The notes under the pieces were generated by a model that saw only the letters and a program-made list of their open reading frames with translations, was not told the origin of the DNA and searched no databases. DNA of 17,836 bases from a virus (Duplodnaviria; Heunggongvirae; Uroviricota; Caudoviricetes): the IMG/VR virus record IMGVR_UViG_2554235189_000012, positions 1 to 17,836 of that record; one strand, given 5' to 3'. Shown in pieces: positions 9,600 to 13,856 of the stretch. Within the stretch, counting starts at the first letter, position 1; each line of letters begins with the position of its first letter. The translations under genes were made by a program, and so were the position numbers.

Positions 9600-9851
9600 T
9601 CAGGCAGCTTTGTTGTAAATGTTGCAGGTATCAAGTAAGTAATTAGATGGAGCGCCATAAATTATGAATTCATCGTTTGTCTGGTCCATCTCCATCTCTT
9701 GGCCTATTGCCATTCTTGCGTCAGTGTCATCAGCGGCGAAGCATAAAACAGCCCACGCACCCATTGTTTTAAAAAGAACTGCAATTGGCTGTGGTTTTAC
9801 TGAATTTGCGTTAGCGCGAAAATCACAAATCGCACTTTCATGAAATTCCAT
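9600..9851 (-). CDS. Hypothetical protein (83 aa)
   Basis: ORF MEFHESAICDFRANANSVKPQPIAVLF...; preceded by the conserved 26-nt leader and a GAGGTGA RBS. Confidence 0.5.
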   Translation of the reverse strand: MEFHESAICDFRANANSVKPQPIAVLFKTMGAWAVLCFAADDTDARMAIGQEMEMDQTNDEFIIYGAPSNYLLDTCNIYNKAA

Positions 9852-9858
9852 ATCTCAC

Positions 9859-9884
9859 CTCAAATAATTGGTTTGCTGCCAAAA
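9859..9884 (-). promoter_or_regulatory. Conserved 26-nt 5' leader element, copy 1 (minus strand TTTTGGCAGCAAACCAATTATTTGAG)
   Basis: 25/26 identical to a second copy at 10096-10121; both end 7 nt upstream of an ATG start codon. Confidence 0.4.
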
Positions 9885-9893
9885 GAAAACCGA

Positions 9894-10088
9894 CTATGCG
9901 TCCTGTCGTTTTTCCGACGCTCTATTCATTTCCTGCCAGATGGCAACTACAGCATCTTCAATATTTCTTTCCTTCAGATCCCATAAATCCCACAGGCCTG
10001 GCATCTCATGACCAAGTTCATCTAAAAGTTTTTTTGCTCCAGCCTGAATCACGTTCTCACTCAGTTGAATCTCTGTTGTTGATTTCAT
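9894..10088 (-). CDS. Hypothetical protein (64 aa; alternative start at 10154 would give 86 aa)
   Basis: ATG at 10088 is preceded by GAGAGGA and the conserved leader; the upstream in-frame ATG at 10154 overlaps the previous stop (ATGA) and cannot be excluded. Confidence 0.45.
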   Translation of the reverse strand: MKSTTEIQLSENVIQAGAKKLLDELGHEMPGLWDLWDLKERNIEDAVVAIWQEMNRASEKRQDA

Positions 10089-10095
10089 AATTCCT

Positions 10096-10121
10096 CTCAA
10101 ATAAGTGGTTTGCTGCCAAAA
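10096..10121 (-). promoter_or_regulatory. Conserved 26-nt 5' leader element, copy 2 (minus strand TTTTGGCAGCAAACCACTTATTTGAG)
   Basis: See copy 1 at 9859-9884. Confidence 0.4.
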
Positions 10122-10150
10122 CAATGAACCATCCGGAAATTCCAGATAGT

Positions 10151-10375
10151 TCATAATTCACTCTTCAATACTTCCAACTTACTAATCGCCGATAGATATC
10201 CGCGCTGATAGGGCATCATCATTCCTTCGAGCTTGCCACTTCTTAACTCCTCCCTGAGCAATTGTATTGCTTGATCAATAACCTCTGCCTTAGCGTCCTT
10301 TATGGCTTGCTTGCGGGGCTTTGCTTTCTGCTTTGGCAGATTTCTCAAGCATGATGGAATGTATGTCTGATTCAT
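10151..10375 (-). CDS. Hypothetical basic protein (74 aa) immediately downstream of N
   Basis: ATG 3 nt after the N stop codon, GAGG upstream; Lys/Arg-rich; no family recognised. Confidence 0.5.
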   Translation of the reverse strand: MNQTYIPSCLRNLPKQKAKPRKQAIKDAKAEVIDQAIQLLREELRSGKLEGMMMPYQRGYLSAISKLEVLKSEL

Positions 10376-10378
10376 CAC

Positions 10379-10651
10379 TTACCTCGCTGTCAGTTGTTTT
10401 GATTTCCGGTAGCCTGCCGCGTAAAGAGCTACGTTTGGCAGGCAAATACTTCCACTGCATTCATCTGCCTTCTTGCAGCGAAGGCCTCCGAGTGATGCTG
10501 CTTTATCTGCTCTGACGCAACCAGAGAGCTTTAGCGCAATTTTTCGCGCCAGTCGCTGCTCTTGCATTGCCTGTTCACGTTGAGCCTGTCTGCGTGCTCT
10601 GCGGCGATTTCTGGCGTTATCGTCAGCCAGATATGTAATGACTACTGCCAT
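10379..10651 (-). CDS. N: N-like transcription antitermination protein with arginine-rich motif
   Basis: 90-aa ORF with GGAGG RBS; Arg-rich N-terminus (NARNRRRARRQAQREQ); central and C-terminal segments (ARKIALKLSGCVRADKAASLG..., VALYAAGYRKSKQLTAR) resemble phage 21 and P22 N proteins as recalled; lies downstream of pL/nutL. Confidence 0.75.
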   Translation of the reverse strand: MAVVITYLADDNARNRRRARRQAQREQAMQEQRLARKIALKLSGCVRADKAASLGGLRCKKADECSGSICLPNVALYAAGYRKSKQLTAR

Positions 10652-10758
10652 GTTGACCTCCGATGATTGACTTTGGCGGTGACGCGCCGGGTGCTTATCT
10701 TCCGGTTGCCGTCGTGCAGCTGCACTTCACGTCACCCCAAAGCCAACTACTCTTTGGT

Positions 10759-10799
10759 TCCCGCATTTCGGCGGGACAATCCCATCAATGTTAAAGAGC
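10759..10799 (-). promoter_or_regulatory. nutL-like site: boxA GCTCTTTAAC plus boxB hairpin TCCCGCCGAAATGCGGGA (minus strand)
   Basis: The same boxA and boxB sequences occur on the plus strand between cro and cII (nutR); each lies downstream of its promoter. Confidence 0.55.
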
Positions 10800-10845
10800 C
10801 TGCCAATCTGTTCCGTTTGGCTACCAGCGTCCTGCTGATGGCTAA

Positions 10846-10874
10846 AGAATACTGTAGGTATTTTATTGTGTAAA
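10846..10874 (-). promoter_or_regulatory. Candidate pL promoter (-35 TTTACA, 17-nt spacer, -10 TATTCT) overlapping operators
   Basis: Hexamers read on the minus strand overlap two AATAC-N5-GTATT operators; the same -10 hexamer and operator arrangement occur at pR. Confidence 0.4.
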
Positions 10875-10932
10875 TACCCAAGGTATTTATTTTTGATGAA
10901 ATAATGATAAGCAAATGAATACAAAGGATATT
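10848..10932. promoter_or_regulatory. oL operator region: three AATAC-N5-GTATT-type sites (10848-10862, 10873-10887, 10918-10932)
   Basis: AATACTGTAGGTATT, AATACCCAAGGTATT (part of a perfect 17-bp palindrome AAATACCCAAGGTATTT), AATACAAAGGATATT; same half-site as the oR sites. Confidence 0.55.
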
Positions 10933-11018
10933 TATTTTTTCGGTGTCTGCTTGTTCAGTGCTTTTTATGCGGGATATGTGAAGTGGATCCCGATAGCTAT
11001 TGCTGCCGGGATTATAGG

Positions 11019-11387
11019 TTAGTCAGCGAAGGTTAAGACGAGAATTACCTTAATGATGTCTGCTACAACAGACACGGCCATAGATAAACCAAAGACGATC
11101 CAAGCCACAGTGATGTCTTCACTACCATCGTATAGAGTTCCGTAATCACTGGTGTAAGGCGTAAATGTCGCGCCTTGATACAATAGGTATAAGCTTGATC
11201 CATAGAGGATAAATGCAGATATCCCTTGTATTGCTATGATCACCAGAATCATGAAACGAGCTGATCTATGCGCCCAAGCCTGGCTTATTTTTTCTGATAG
11301 AGATTTCGCAATAAAAGTATGCGCTAAGCCGTAAATTGTCGAGATTGCCAACATCCCAAAAAAGCTTGCTATAGCGGTTCCAACCAT
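11019..11387 (-). CDS. Small integral membrane protein (~122 aa, three predicted TM helices) downstream of cI
   Basis: ORF begins 18 nt after the cI stop with AAGGGG upstream of ATG at 11387 (the ORF track starts it at a TTG inside the cI stop); three hydrophobic segments; occupies the position of rexAB in lambda. Confidence 0.6.
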   Translation of the reverse strand: MVGTAIASFFGMLAISTIYGLAHTFIAKSLSEKISQAWAHRSARFMILVIIAIQGISAFILYGSSLYLLYQGATFTPYTSDYGTLYDGSEDITVAWIVFGLSMAVSVVADIIKVILVLTFAD

Positions 11388-11404
11388 AATCGCCCCTTGC
11401 GTGA

Positions 11405-12121
11405 TCAAACCAGCCTTAGTTTTGTCTCAATTGCAACGCCTATAATCTTGCAGTTTCCATTGATTGGCACGAGAGGCCATGCAGGATTAAGTCCCTTGAG
11501 GTATTTATTTCCGCCGTCGATTATCAGCTTCTTGAATGTTGCTTCGTTAGAGTCAGAAAGTTTTGCTATGACCAAGCTGCCGTTGATCGCCTCCCTTCCG
11601 GTATCGAAAAGAACGAATGTTCCCTCTGGAATACTTAACCCAACCGGTGCCGTCATTGAATCACCTTCCACTTTAAGCCAGAACGCATTACCTTGAATAT
11701 GCGCGTCAGACTCAAGCCAAACATCTATGTCTTTAATGGTGTATGGTTCGCATGCTTCACACCACGAGCCAGCCTGGATACTGCTTAACACCGGATACCT
11801 CTTTCCTGCTCTGTATTCCCCTGCATACCTTACGTTGGCATCGCTCTTAAGGCTTTCTGCCTGTTCTGCAACCTTGGCAGCAATTGACTGGCTAAAATCA
11901 GCAATTGAGACTTGCAACAAACGTGCAAAACCAGATGCGACCTCAACGTTTAGCGCGTTTCTGCCATTAAGATAATGCCCTACCGCTCCTTGGGTGATAC
12001 CCAGTTCATCAGCGATTGAGTATTGGGTTATTCCCAATTCTTTCTTTTTTGACTCATACAAAGCCTTAAGCCGCTTAGCGTCTTCGAGCTGTTCTGTCGT
12101 CAGTGATTTTTTATTTTCCAT
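11405..12121 (-). CDS. cI: CI-type prophage repressor (HTH_XRE N-terminal domain plus LexA/S24-like C-terminal domain)
   Basis: 238-aa ORF; N-terminus TEQLEDAKRLKALYESKKKELGITQYSIADELG parallels lambda CI; C-terminal FWLKVEGDSMTAP matches the S24 autocleavage domain; divergent from cro with operators between. Confidence 0.9.
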   Translation of the reverse strand: MENKKSLTTEQLEDAKRLKALYESKKKELGITQYSIADELGITQGAVGHYLNGRNALNVEVASGFARLLQVSIADFSQSIAAKVAEQAESLKSDANVRYAGEYRAGKRYPVLSSIQAGSWCEACEPYTIKDIDVWLESDAHIQGNAFWLKVEGDSMTAPVGLSIPEGTFVLFDTGREAINGSLVIAKLSDSNEATFKKLIIDGGNKYLKGLNPAWPLVPINGNCKIIGVAIETKLRLV

Positions 12122-12156
12122 AGCTTAATTCTAATAGCTAAGGTACTTAAACTAAA

Positions 12157-12196
12157 AATACCCTGAGTATTGATTGCTTTGAATACCTGTAGTATT
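12157..12196. promoter_or_regulatory. oR operator region: two AATAC-N5-GTATT sites (12157-12171, 12182-12196)
   Basis: AATACCCTGAGTATT and AATACCTGTAGTATT, 10 bp apart, between cI and cro; a third site nearer cI could not be defined. Confidence 0.55.
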
Positions 12197-12198
12197 CT
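12170..12198 (+). promoter_or_regulatory. Candidate pR promoter (-35 TTGATT, 17-nt spacer, -10 TATTCT)
   Basis: Hexamers overlap the two oR sites; cro ATG about 30 nt downstream. Confidence 0.4.
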
Positions 12199-12227
12199 TT
12201 GTTCATGGTTAATAACGGAGAGTGCAT

Positions 12228-12422
12228 ATGATTCGAATGACACTTGCCGATTACGCCAAAATCCATGGACAGGCTAAAGCAGCCAGTGACTTTGGTGTAA
12301 TCCAGTGCGCTATCAGCAAGGCCATTCTGGCAGGCCGTAACATTATGGTTACGGTAAAGCCTGATGGCAGTGTGATTGGAGAGGAAGTTCGTCCTTTCCC
12401 AAGCAACAAGAAAAACAAATAG
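12228..12422 (+). CDS. cro: Cro-like repressor
   Basis: 64-aa [65 protein letters not shown], homologous in pattern to lambda Cro; GGAG RBS; the ORF track starts it at an upstream GTG. Confidence 0.8.
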
Positions 12423-12429
12423 TAACACC

Positions 12430-12473
12430 GCTCTTTAACAGTCATGGTCCTCATTCCCGCCGAAATGCGGGAA
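12430..12473 (+). promoter_or_regulatory. nutR-like site: boxA GCTCTTTAAC plus boxB hairpin TTCCCGCCGAAATGCGGGAA
   Basis: 7-bp stem and 6-nt loop hairpin 14 nt after boxA, between cro and cII; boxB core identical to nutL. Confidence 0.55.
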
Positions 12474-12530
12474 TACAACGCGCATAAGTTGATGCGCATA
12501 ACTTCTTATTTGTTAAGGAAATACTTACAT

Positions 12531-12824
12531 ATGGTTCGTGCAAACAAACGCAACGAGGCTCTACGAATCGAGAGTGCGTTGCTTAACAAAATCGCAATGC
12601 TTGGAACTGAGAAGACAGCGGAAGCTGTGGGAGTTGATAAGTCGCAGATCAGCAGGTGGAAGAGGGACTGGATTCCAAAGTTCTCAATGCTGCTTGCTGT
12701 TCTTGAATGGGGCGTCGTTGACGACGATATGGCTCGATTGGCACGACAAGTTGCTTCGATTCTCACCAATAAAAAACGCCCGGCGGCAACCGAGCGTTCT
12801 GAACAAATCCAGATGGAATTCTGA
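12531..12824 (+). CDS. cII: CII transcriptional activator (lambda-type)
   Basis: 97-aa product [51 protein letters not shown]... is, as far as I can recall, essentially identical to lambda CII; upstream RBS region also lambda-like. Confidence 0.9.
12540..12553 (-). promoter_or_regulatory. CII-binding TTGC-N6-TTGC repeat of a pRE-type promoter (minus strand)
   Basis: Minus strand reads TTGCGTTTGTTTGC inside the 5' end of cII, as in lambda pRE. Confidence 0.5.
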
Positions 12825-12846
12825 GGTCATTACTGGATCTATCAAC
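12770..12846 (-). ncRNA. oop: Possible oop-like antisense RNA (terminator hairpin within 3' end of cII; promoter only partly conserved)
   Basis: Lambda-like sequence at the cII 3' end includes a GC-rich hairpin followed by TTTTTTATTGG on the minus strand; a CATAAT -10 is retained but the -35 region differs because the downstream sequence is not lambda-like. Extent inferred by analogy. Confidence 0.3.
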
Positions 12847-12856
12847 AGGAGTAATT

Positions 12857-13002
12857 ATGACAAAACAACTCAGTCCTTACCAGGACAAAATTCACAAACA
12901 CATACTACGTGATCGCTTCCTGTCCAGCTTCAAGCAGCCTGGTCGATTCAGGGCTGAGTTGGAAAAAGTGAAGCTGATGCAGAAGGAGAAAGGTCATGAG
13001 TA
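12857..13002 (+). CDS. Hypothetical 48-aa protein between cII and the O-like gene (reminiscent of P22 orf48 by position and size)
   Basis: AGGAG 6 nt upstream of ATG at 12857; [48 protein letters not shown]; stop overlaps the O-like start; its RBS and first codons coincide with where lambda O would start. Confidence 0.4.
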
Positions 13003-13856
13003 ATATTGCAACCGTAACACATTTAAGGCCTTCACAACGGCCTGTGGAGCGTCGTGTGGCAGAAGTTGAAGATGGTTATACCCGTCTTGCAAATGCCCTG
13101 TATGAAGAGCTTATCGGCGCTGATTTAACGAAAAATCAGAGCAAGGTTGCCCACGCCATATGCCGTAAAACATACGGCTACGGTAAAAAGATGGATCGCA
13201 TCTCTGATAGTCAGTTAGCTCAAATTACCAGGCTGCCAAGACAGAAGGTAAACAAGGCCAAGAATGAGCTTATCGCGATGAAGGTTATCCTTCGCGAAGG
13301 CCAGCAAATCGGGCCTAACAAGAACATCGAAGAATGGCAAATCGAAGGGTGTCACTACTCTGGTGATAATGTCACCGCATTGGTGACAAAAAGTGTCACC
13401 AAAACGGTGACAGCGCTGTCACCAAAACAGGGACACACAAAAGAAACTATTACAAAAGAAAAAAGAAATAATAAAAACACTATGTCCGAAAGTGTTCGGA
13501 CGGAGTGTGAAAAATCACCTGACCGTCACGAAGAAACCGACAAGGCATTCGAGGAAATATTCTGGTGTGCAGGCATGCGGAAAGCCGGGAAGAAAAACGC
13601 AGCTTCGGCATTCAGAACACAGTTCAGGGAATGGCGTAAAACTACCAGGGGTACGGCAAGCGAGTTTGCCACGATGCTGGCAGAAGACATCGCATGCAGG
13701 AATGGTAAGCAGTTCGGATTCGACAGGTTGTTACCATCGAGCTACCTGAACGGTCAGCGCTGGAACGACGAAAAGCCAGAAACCATTCAACCACAATCCA
13801 AACCATCATCCGCAATCACCGTATCGAAAACTGGCTACGTGTTTTTCGACAGGTGA
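12996..13856 (+). CDS. Replication initiator, lambda O-like N-terminal domain with a heterologous C-terminal domain
   Basis: 286-aa ORF with AAGGAG RBS; N-terminal region ([56 protein letters not shown]...GPNKNIEEW) parallels lambda O; internal iteron array and AT-rich tract; C-terminus unlike lambda O. Confidence 0.8.
13349..13480. repeat. Putative replication origin: four TGTCACC-N4-7-GGTGACA-type iterons followed by an A-rich tract
   Basis: Four ~20-bp-spaced dyad repeats inside the O-like gene, then GGGACACACAAAAGAAACTATTACAAAAGAAAAAAGAAATAATAAAAAC, closely resembling the lambda ori layout. Confidence 0.6.

Follow-up and report, generated by a model that had tools for sequence, protein, structure and literature searches.

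N proteins of lambdoid phages are divided into regions that bind RNA, NusA and the polymerase, as established for lambda and H-19B N (PMC3526286). On the RNA side, a nut site comprises boxA, which recruits NusB/NusE (PMC3177189), followed by the boxB hairpin. The window, that is the whole 17,836-nt stretch of the Caudoviricetes record IMGVR_UViG_2554235189_000012, carries an N gene and two nut sites, nutL and nutR, at positions 10379–12473. With a probability of about 0.9, this region of a lambdoid prophage is an early antitermination module of the HK620 type, in which the arginine-rich motif (ARM) of N and the boxB hairpin form a matched specificity pair that moves as a unit.

The boxB hairpins of four other systems were extracted from the reference genomes. 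Those of lambda are GCCCU-GAAGA-AGGGC at nutL and GCCCU-GAAAA-AGGGC at nutR; those of P22 are GCGCU-GACAA-AGCGC and CCGCC-GACAA-CGCGG, respectively. These pentaloops adopt GNRA-like folds from which one base is looped out (PMC12550061). Phage 21, for which a peptide-RNA structure exists (PDB 1NYB), has UCUCAAC-CUAACC-GUUGAGA at nutL and UCACCU-CUAACC-GGGUGA at nutR, with a hexaloop in which a C/C flanking pair surrounds a four-base GNRA-like turn (PMC12550061). VT2-Sakai, of the 933W/H-19B group, has GGCU-GAAA-AGCC and CGCU-GAAA-AGCG, and H-19B N is described as binding a boxB "tetra-loop" (PMC3526286).

In the window, the hairpin is UCCCGC-CGAAAU-GCGGGA at both nut sites. nutL is on the minus strand, with boxA GCTCTTTAAC at 10790–10799 and boxB at 10759–10776; nutR is on the plus strand, with the same boxA at 12430–12439 and the same boxB at 12455–12472. 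One site stands between pL and N and the other between cro and cII, and boxA precedes the hairpin by 13 nt at nutL and 15 nt at nutR. Besides these two exact copies of the 18-mer TCCCGCCGAAATGCGGGA, the window has no other; dinucleotide-preserving shuffles contain 0.01 matches to it on average, and none of 200 contains two. It folds at −9.7 kcal/mol, with 6 bp in the stem and 6 nt in the loop, and at nutR the flanking U/A and U/A pairs lengthen the stem to 8 bp. The boxA form GCTCTTTAAC is also that of P22 nutL and of both phage 21 nut sites. The preliminary description, made from the sequence alone, had noticed that the two sites share boxA and an identical boxB and that this boxB differs from that of lambda; both points hold, and the hairpin also differs from those of P22, phage 21 and VT2-Sakai.

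The N gene (10379–10651, minus strand; 90 residues and a stop codon) is the first gene of the leftward early operon and lies downstream of nutL, as indicated by its open reading frame, its family matches and its HK620 equivalent. A GGAGG is located 6 nt upstream of its ATG. The product belongs to the N family: it scores 59 bits against Pfam PF25694 (N_peptide; cut-off 27.9) and matches PHROG 271 ("anti-termination protein N-like") with an E value of 3e-33. The codons for the ARM, NARNRRRARRQAQREQ, are at 10571–10618 on the minus strand and specify residues 12–27, the predicted boxB-binding helix. The N proteins of the window, HK620, ECP1, mEp213, mEpX2, VT1-Sakai, phage 21, P22 and lambda were aligned. 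The ARM lines up column for column with those of lambda, P22 and phage 21, following the pattern A-x-x-R-x-x-x-R-R, and A13, R16, R20 and R21 are invariant in the nine proteins. The ARM of the window is the same in HK620, ECP1, mEp213 and mEpX2; it agrees with those of lambda, P22 and phage 21 at only 7, 6 and 5 of 18 aligned positions, so that the arginine-rich N-terminus is indeed distinct, as had been proposed. Searching the PDB sequences with N as the query returned no relative, and the ARM is therefore without a solved complex.

The closest described system is that of HK620 (GenBank AF335538 / NC_002730). Over all of its 2095 nt, the region shares 99% identity with the coliphages HK620 and HK630 and with phi296 and phi367, two phages of enterohaemorrhagic E. 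coli, and HK140, mEpX2, HF4s and others cover 91–100% of it; the HK620-type module is found in HK630, HK140, mEpX2, ECP1 and HF4s. AF335538 annotates, in this order, N, nutL, pL with OL1-3, tIMM, hkaS, cI, OR3-1 with pR, cro, nutR, tR1, pRE and cII, and all of these features, shifted by a coordinate offset of 8878, land on the corresponding features of the window. Both boxA copies and both hairpins fall within the equivalents of the HK620 nut sites, from which the window does not differ by a single base. The two N proteins are 94% identical, with five amino-acid differences; the ARM is identical and the 33 N-terminal residues are the same except for A2T. The flanks differ: the window has the cII of lambda where HK620 has a P22 c1-like cII, and the gene downstream of N is another one.

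As N, nutL and nutR, with the same ARM and the same nut sites, are already annotated at the equivalent positions of HK620, the N/nut module has been on record since 2001: it is real but ordinary. The segment made of nutL and the 5' part of N is found in 526 of 5426 complete E. coli genomes, about one in ten, and in at least 120 IMG/VR contigs among the matches listed. For discovery, a module that is frequent in E. coli prophages and has stood in the annotation of a published phage genome since 2001 matters little, and the hint of novelty in the preliminary description falls away. That description had also envisaged, as a result that would speak against it, identity to an already characterised N/nut pair. 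The identity is there, since the pair is the one described for HK620; the characterisation is there in part, since the HK620 pair is known by annotation and no experimental test of it was found. Taken as a whole, the window combines known lambdoid segments into a new mosaic; a single phage covers 43% of it at best and a single E. coli chromosome 54%, and no phage or E. coli record matches more than about 54% of its length.

By alignment, N is itself a mosaic, with an HK620-type N-terminus, a phage 21-like centre and a VT1-Sakai/P22-like C-terminus. Among the nine aligned proteins, residues 1–33, including the ARM, are common only to the HK620 group. Residues ~34–64 are near-identical to N of phage 21 and VT1-Sakai, with 93% identity to phage 21 over residues 37–64. 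Residues 37–90 are 96% identical to VT1-Sakai N, and residues 47–90 are 61% identical to P22 gp24. The C-terminal CLPNVALYAAGYRKSKQLTAR is common to N of the window, VT1-Sakai and VT2-Sakai, P22 gp24 being more distant. The joints are visible in the DNA: the window and phage 21 are near-identical in the pL leader and boxA, differ by replacement of boxB and of the ARM codons, and return to identity at about codon 34. The phage 21-like and P22-like segments of the preliminary description are thus recovered.

The pairing of ARM and boxB was followed in natural recombinants. The ARM DNARNRRRARRQAQREQ occurs with the boxB UCCCGCCGAAAUGCGGGA at both nut sites of the window, which is the combination of the HK620 specificity group, and the same pairing is found in mEpX2, ECP1 and more than 90 IMG/VR contigs. 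Among IMG/VR loci that were fetched by the boxA-boxB pattern and whose nutL has enough sequence downstream (n = 98), an HK620-type boxB is followed by the ARM N[AT]RNRRRA[RK]R in 97; the sole exception has an insertion, followed by an N whose sequence starts MTIVVTYL. This ARM is carried by at least four different, unrelated N bodies: one with a phage 21 centre and a P22-like C-terminus (90 residues), a full 21-like body with a lambda/21-type C-terminus (99–101 residues), a P22-like body (86–87 residues) and the divergent MTIVMTYLASDNARNRRRAKR group (78–88 residues). The converse combination exists in VT1-Sakai, which has the N body of the window with the ARM of phage 21, and whose boxBs are of the phage 21 type, with the CUAACC loop.

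The search was also run in reverse, from loci found via the protein or the ARM with enough sequence upstream (n = 78). An exact boxB lies within 450 nt of the ARM in 70 of them, and a variant with three mismatches in one. The other seven, with no boxB in that range, looked like counter-examples; five of these (L145, L146, L153, L176 and L193) have an exact boxB further upstream, beyond an insertion in the N leader. Of the last two, L182 is truncated and L129 has neither boxB nor boxA in the 857 nt upstream. A second exact boxB, at nutR, accompanies 154 of 176 nutL sites; it is missing for 5, and for 17 there is too little upstream sequence to tell. The distances between nutL and nutR fall into about ten spacing classes, from 1152 to 2990 nt, which we take, from the distances alone, to be distinct immunity regions framed by the same nut sites. 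Since the nutR matches persist across the spacing classes, the pair seems to be under functional constraint. These natural recombinants act as domain swaps and support a cognate ARM/boxB pair; as far as sequence comparison goes, they show that each of the two specifies the other, whatever the rest of N. The matched N/boxB pair suggested in the preliminary description is accordingly supported. The module is of value mainly as an illustration, with one ARM on four N bodies, one N body with two ARMs, and one pair of nut sites at about ten spacings.

The pL operon of phage mEp213 (JQ182733; L008 1200–3300 and L254 370–520) contains two N genes. A lambda-type N comes first, together with a lambda-type nutL and nutR; the HK620-type N is located about 1.1 kb further on, with nothing but a decayed boxB, CCCTCCGAAATGCGGG, and no boxA before it. 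The latter appears to be an orphan second antiterminator gene. In many relatives (L146, L153, L176, L193 and L008 2640–2895), an insertion of ~230–290 nt, starting GCGGGAACTGAGTTTAACC, separates the nutL boxB from the stem of the N leader described below; it is absent from the window, has no Rfam match and gives no fold signal in these relatives (z = −0.66). Another insertion variant contains a 70-residue open reading frame, MLHMQQEDL....

The window can be placed relative to the known specificity groups. Phage 21 is close in several respects: its boxA and pL leader are near-identical, its N leader is homologous, the central residues of its N are nearly those of the window, and its boxB has the same geometry, with a 6-bp stem starting with U-A and a 6-nt loop starting with C. 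The loop of the window is readable like that of phage 21, with C/U around GAAA in place of C/C. The loop sequences nevertheless differ (CUAACC against CGAAAU), as do the ARMs (GTAKSRYKARRAEL against DNARNRRRARRQAQ) and the C-termini of N, P22-like in the window and lambda/21-like in phage 21; the window is therefore outside the phage 21 group, defined by the CUAACC hexaloop and the ARM GTAKSRYKARR. The 933W / VT2-Sakai group (NGCU-GAAA-AGCN, ARM GTAASRRRARRAN) has in common with the window the GAAA loop at both nut sites, the ARM core RRRARR and the C-terminal residues already mentioned. It differs by a 4-bp stem, a U-A closing pair without pyrimidine mismatch, a spacer hairpin between boxA and boxB, and another N centre.

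Lambda N and P22 gp24 resemble the window N in the overall system, the register of the ARM and the boxA-spacer-boxB layout; their loops also start with G-A and end with A, and P22 nutR, CCGCC-GACAA-CGCGG, has a pyrimidine mismatch beside the loop, as in the window. Their boxBs differ in being pentaloops with one extruded base (PMC12550061). The window N has an alanine at the position aligned with lambda Trp18, and it has neither the lambda combination (GCCCU-GAARA-AGGGC pentaloop, ARM with Trp18) nor that of P22 (GACAA pentaloop, ARM GNAKTRRHERRRK). On its simplest reading, the window loop would be a true GAAA tetraloop with a C/U mismatch on its flanks. Its geometry would then be that of phage 21 and its loop sequence of the 933W type, which makes it an intermediate between the hexaloop of the former and the GAAA tetraloop of 933W/VT2-Sakai.

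The HK620-type ARM and boxB might represent a structurally distinct, fifth mode of N-boxB recognition, in which a hexaloop frame like that of phage 21 holds a true GAAA tetraloop resting on a C/U mismatch. The pair would be orthogonal to those of lambda, P22, phage 21 and 933W. This proposal is tentative, and we put its chances slightly below even. If it is true, the module holds an unsolved peptide-RNA complex and a ready-made extra orthogonal tag for RNA tethering; orthogonality to the lambda, P22 and phage 21 pairs would suffice to add one more peptide/hairpin tag of this kind.

The alternative that survives best is that the N/nut system works without a separate specificity. The ARM would then read a generic GNRA-type fold and cross-react with boxBs of the 933W/VT2-Sakai type (NGCU-GAAA-AGCN) or of lambda. 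VT2-Sakai N has the RRRARR core (GTAASRRRARR) and its nutL and nutR hairpins are GAAA-looped as in the window; the "tetra-loop" said to be bound by H-19B N (PMC3526286) and the GNRA-like nature of the lambda and P22 pentaloops (PMC12550061) point in the same direction. Against this, the stem, the closing pair (a C/U mismatch versus U-A) and the flanks of the ARM differ, and only 8 of 18 ARM positions are shared with VT2-Sakai by our own count. In nature, the HK620 ARM occurs almost only with a CGAAAU-loop boxB at both nut sites, and in mEp213, which has a lambda set and an HK620-type N, the nut sites are of the lambda type and the HK620 boxB has decayed. Cross-reactivity is thus unlikely, if a real contender.

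A second alternative is that the ARM and boxB co-occur through physical linkage and recent common descent, and not through functional co-adaptation. It is true that a stretch of about 200 nt holds boxB, the leader and the ARM codons, and that most loci are more than 95% identical there. Yet nutR is 1.15–2.99 kb away, in about ten spacing classes, and still carries the exact boxB in most loci, and the divergent SDNARNRRRAKR lineage has altered stems and kept the loop at both sites. We consider this explanation very improbable.

The hairpins vary naturally in a way that bears on what the ARM reads. A sister lineage with the ARM SDNARNRRRAKRAAEREQ (IMG/VR contigs L209–L248) has (U)CUCCGC-CGAAAU-GCGGGG(A) at nutL and CUCCCAC-CGAAAU-GUCGGAG at nutR: the stems differ between the two sites, the nutR stem contains an internal C/C mismatch, and the CGAAAU loop is present at both. 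The stem variants of the SDNARNRRRAKRAAEREQ lineage would be useful for defining what the ARM recognizes. In a comparison of 13 distinct nut hairpins, a small sample collected by exact-match patterns, the CGAAAU loop and the closing C-G pair are invariant and 4 of 8 stem pairs vary on both sides, for instance G-C to A-U beside the closing pair; 89% of the cells are paired, versus 37–61% after sliding the 3' strand. The invariance is partly built in by the exact-match sampling; the compensatory stem changes are not.

A reading of the two hairpins as intrinsic terminators, or as inverted repeats due to chance, can be dismissed almost outright: they are GC-rich and downstream of promoters, as terminators may be, but no T tract follows either of them (GCGGGAACCAAAG, GCGGGAATACAAC), the terminator scan does not report them, a consensus boxA lies 13–15 nt before each, and two exact copies are unexpected by chance.

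Several points weigh against a matched, mobile HK620-type pair. RNA binding, dependence on Nus factors and read-through are deduced from homology. nutL is ~110 nt from the start of N, so that the linkage of ARM and nutL could be hitch-hiking, and it is the nutR matches alone that argue for selection. The loci were fetched by exact boxB patterns, which inflates the apparent invariance of boxB. Because the working nut sites of mEp213 are of the lambda type and its HK620-type boxB is decayed, an HK620-type N can persist without its cognate site. Finally, the literature on HK620 and the mEp phages, searched with boxB, nut or antitermination, yielded no functional test.

With the module taken as a matched pair, its mechanism would be as follows. 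The pL and pR transcripts would carry nutL and nutR, each with boxA and then the boxB hairpin. The N-terminal arginine-rich helix (residues ~10–28) would bind the boxB loop, the phage 21-like central segment would recruit NusA, and boxA would recruit NusB/NusE. The VT1-Sakai/P22-like C-terminus would contact RNA polymerase, near the RNA exit channel, and the modified polymerase would pass the tL and tR terminators and go on to transcribe the genes for recombination and replication. When passing from one phage to another, the ARM and boxB would stay together, whatever the remainder of N and the immunity region.

Between boxB and the ribosome-binding site of N, the leader contains a long stem (10666–10747, minus strand), present in both the minimum-free-energy and the centroid folds. 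This 82-nt stem has a z score of −2.5, the whole leader reaching −71 kcal/mol. It is conserved in phage 21 and VT1-Sakai; the N leader is ~80% similar to that of phage 21 (judged by eye). In lambda, an RNase III site in the N leader couples N translation to nutL, and the stem of the window is, we assume, placed like that RNase III hairpin. Rfam contains no nut, boxB or N-leader family, and its sole match in 9800–13200 is a chance one.

Upstream of nutL, pL (10839–10874, minus strand) overlaps the OL operators, which extend to ~10910; these positions are transferred from the HK620 annotation, and an independent promoter scan finds TTTACA-17-TATTCT at 10874–10846, where pL is expected. The immunity region is context to the N/nut module: the cI repressor (11405–12121, minus strand), with a helix-turn-helix and an S24 peptidase domain, has HK620 cI at the equivalent position, and cro (12228–12422, plus strand; Pfam Cro, E 4e-26), also annotated in HK620, has nutR directly downstream. 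Between cI and pL/OL, at 11019–11408 on the minus strand, lies a hydrophobic open reading frame of 129 residues, HK620 hkaS, which matches PHROG 6534 (function unknown) and has no Pfam match. It occupies the position where lambda has rexA and rexB, and its product is a candidate lysogen-expressed exclusion or membrane protein.

A mosaic joint is located at 12473–12535, directly past nutR/tR1. A hairpin, GCGCAT-AAGTTG-ATGCGC, stands at 12480–12497, just past the equivalent of HK620 tR1. The cII of the window (12531–12824) is that of lambda, and the divergence from HK620 begins exactly at the cII start codon. On the other side of the module, the two open reading frames immediately downstream of N (10151–10378 and 9894–10154, minus strand) are unlike HK620 hkaQ and match PHROG 5305 and PHROG 37429 (function unknown). 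The 75-residue one, next to N in the window, also adjoins N in mEp213, mEpX2 and ECP1.

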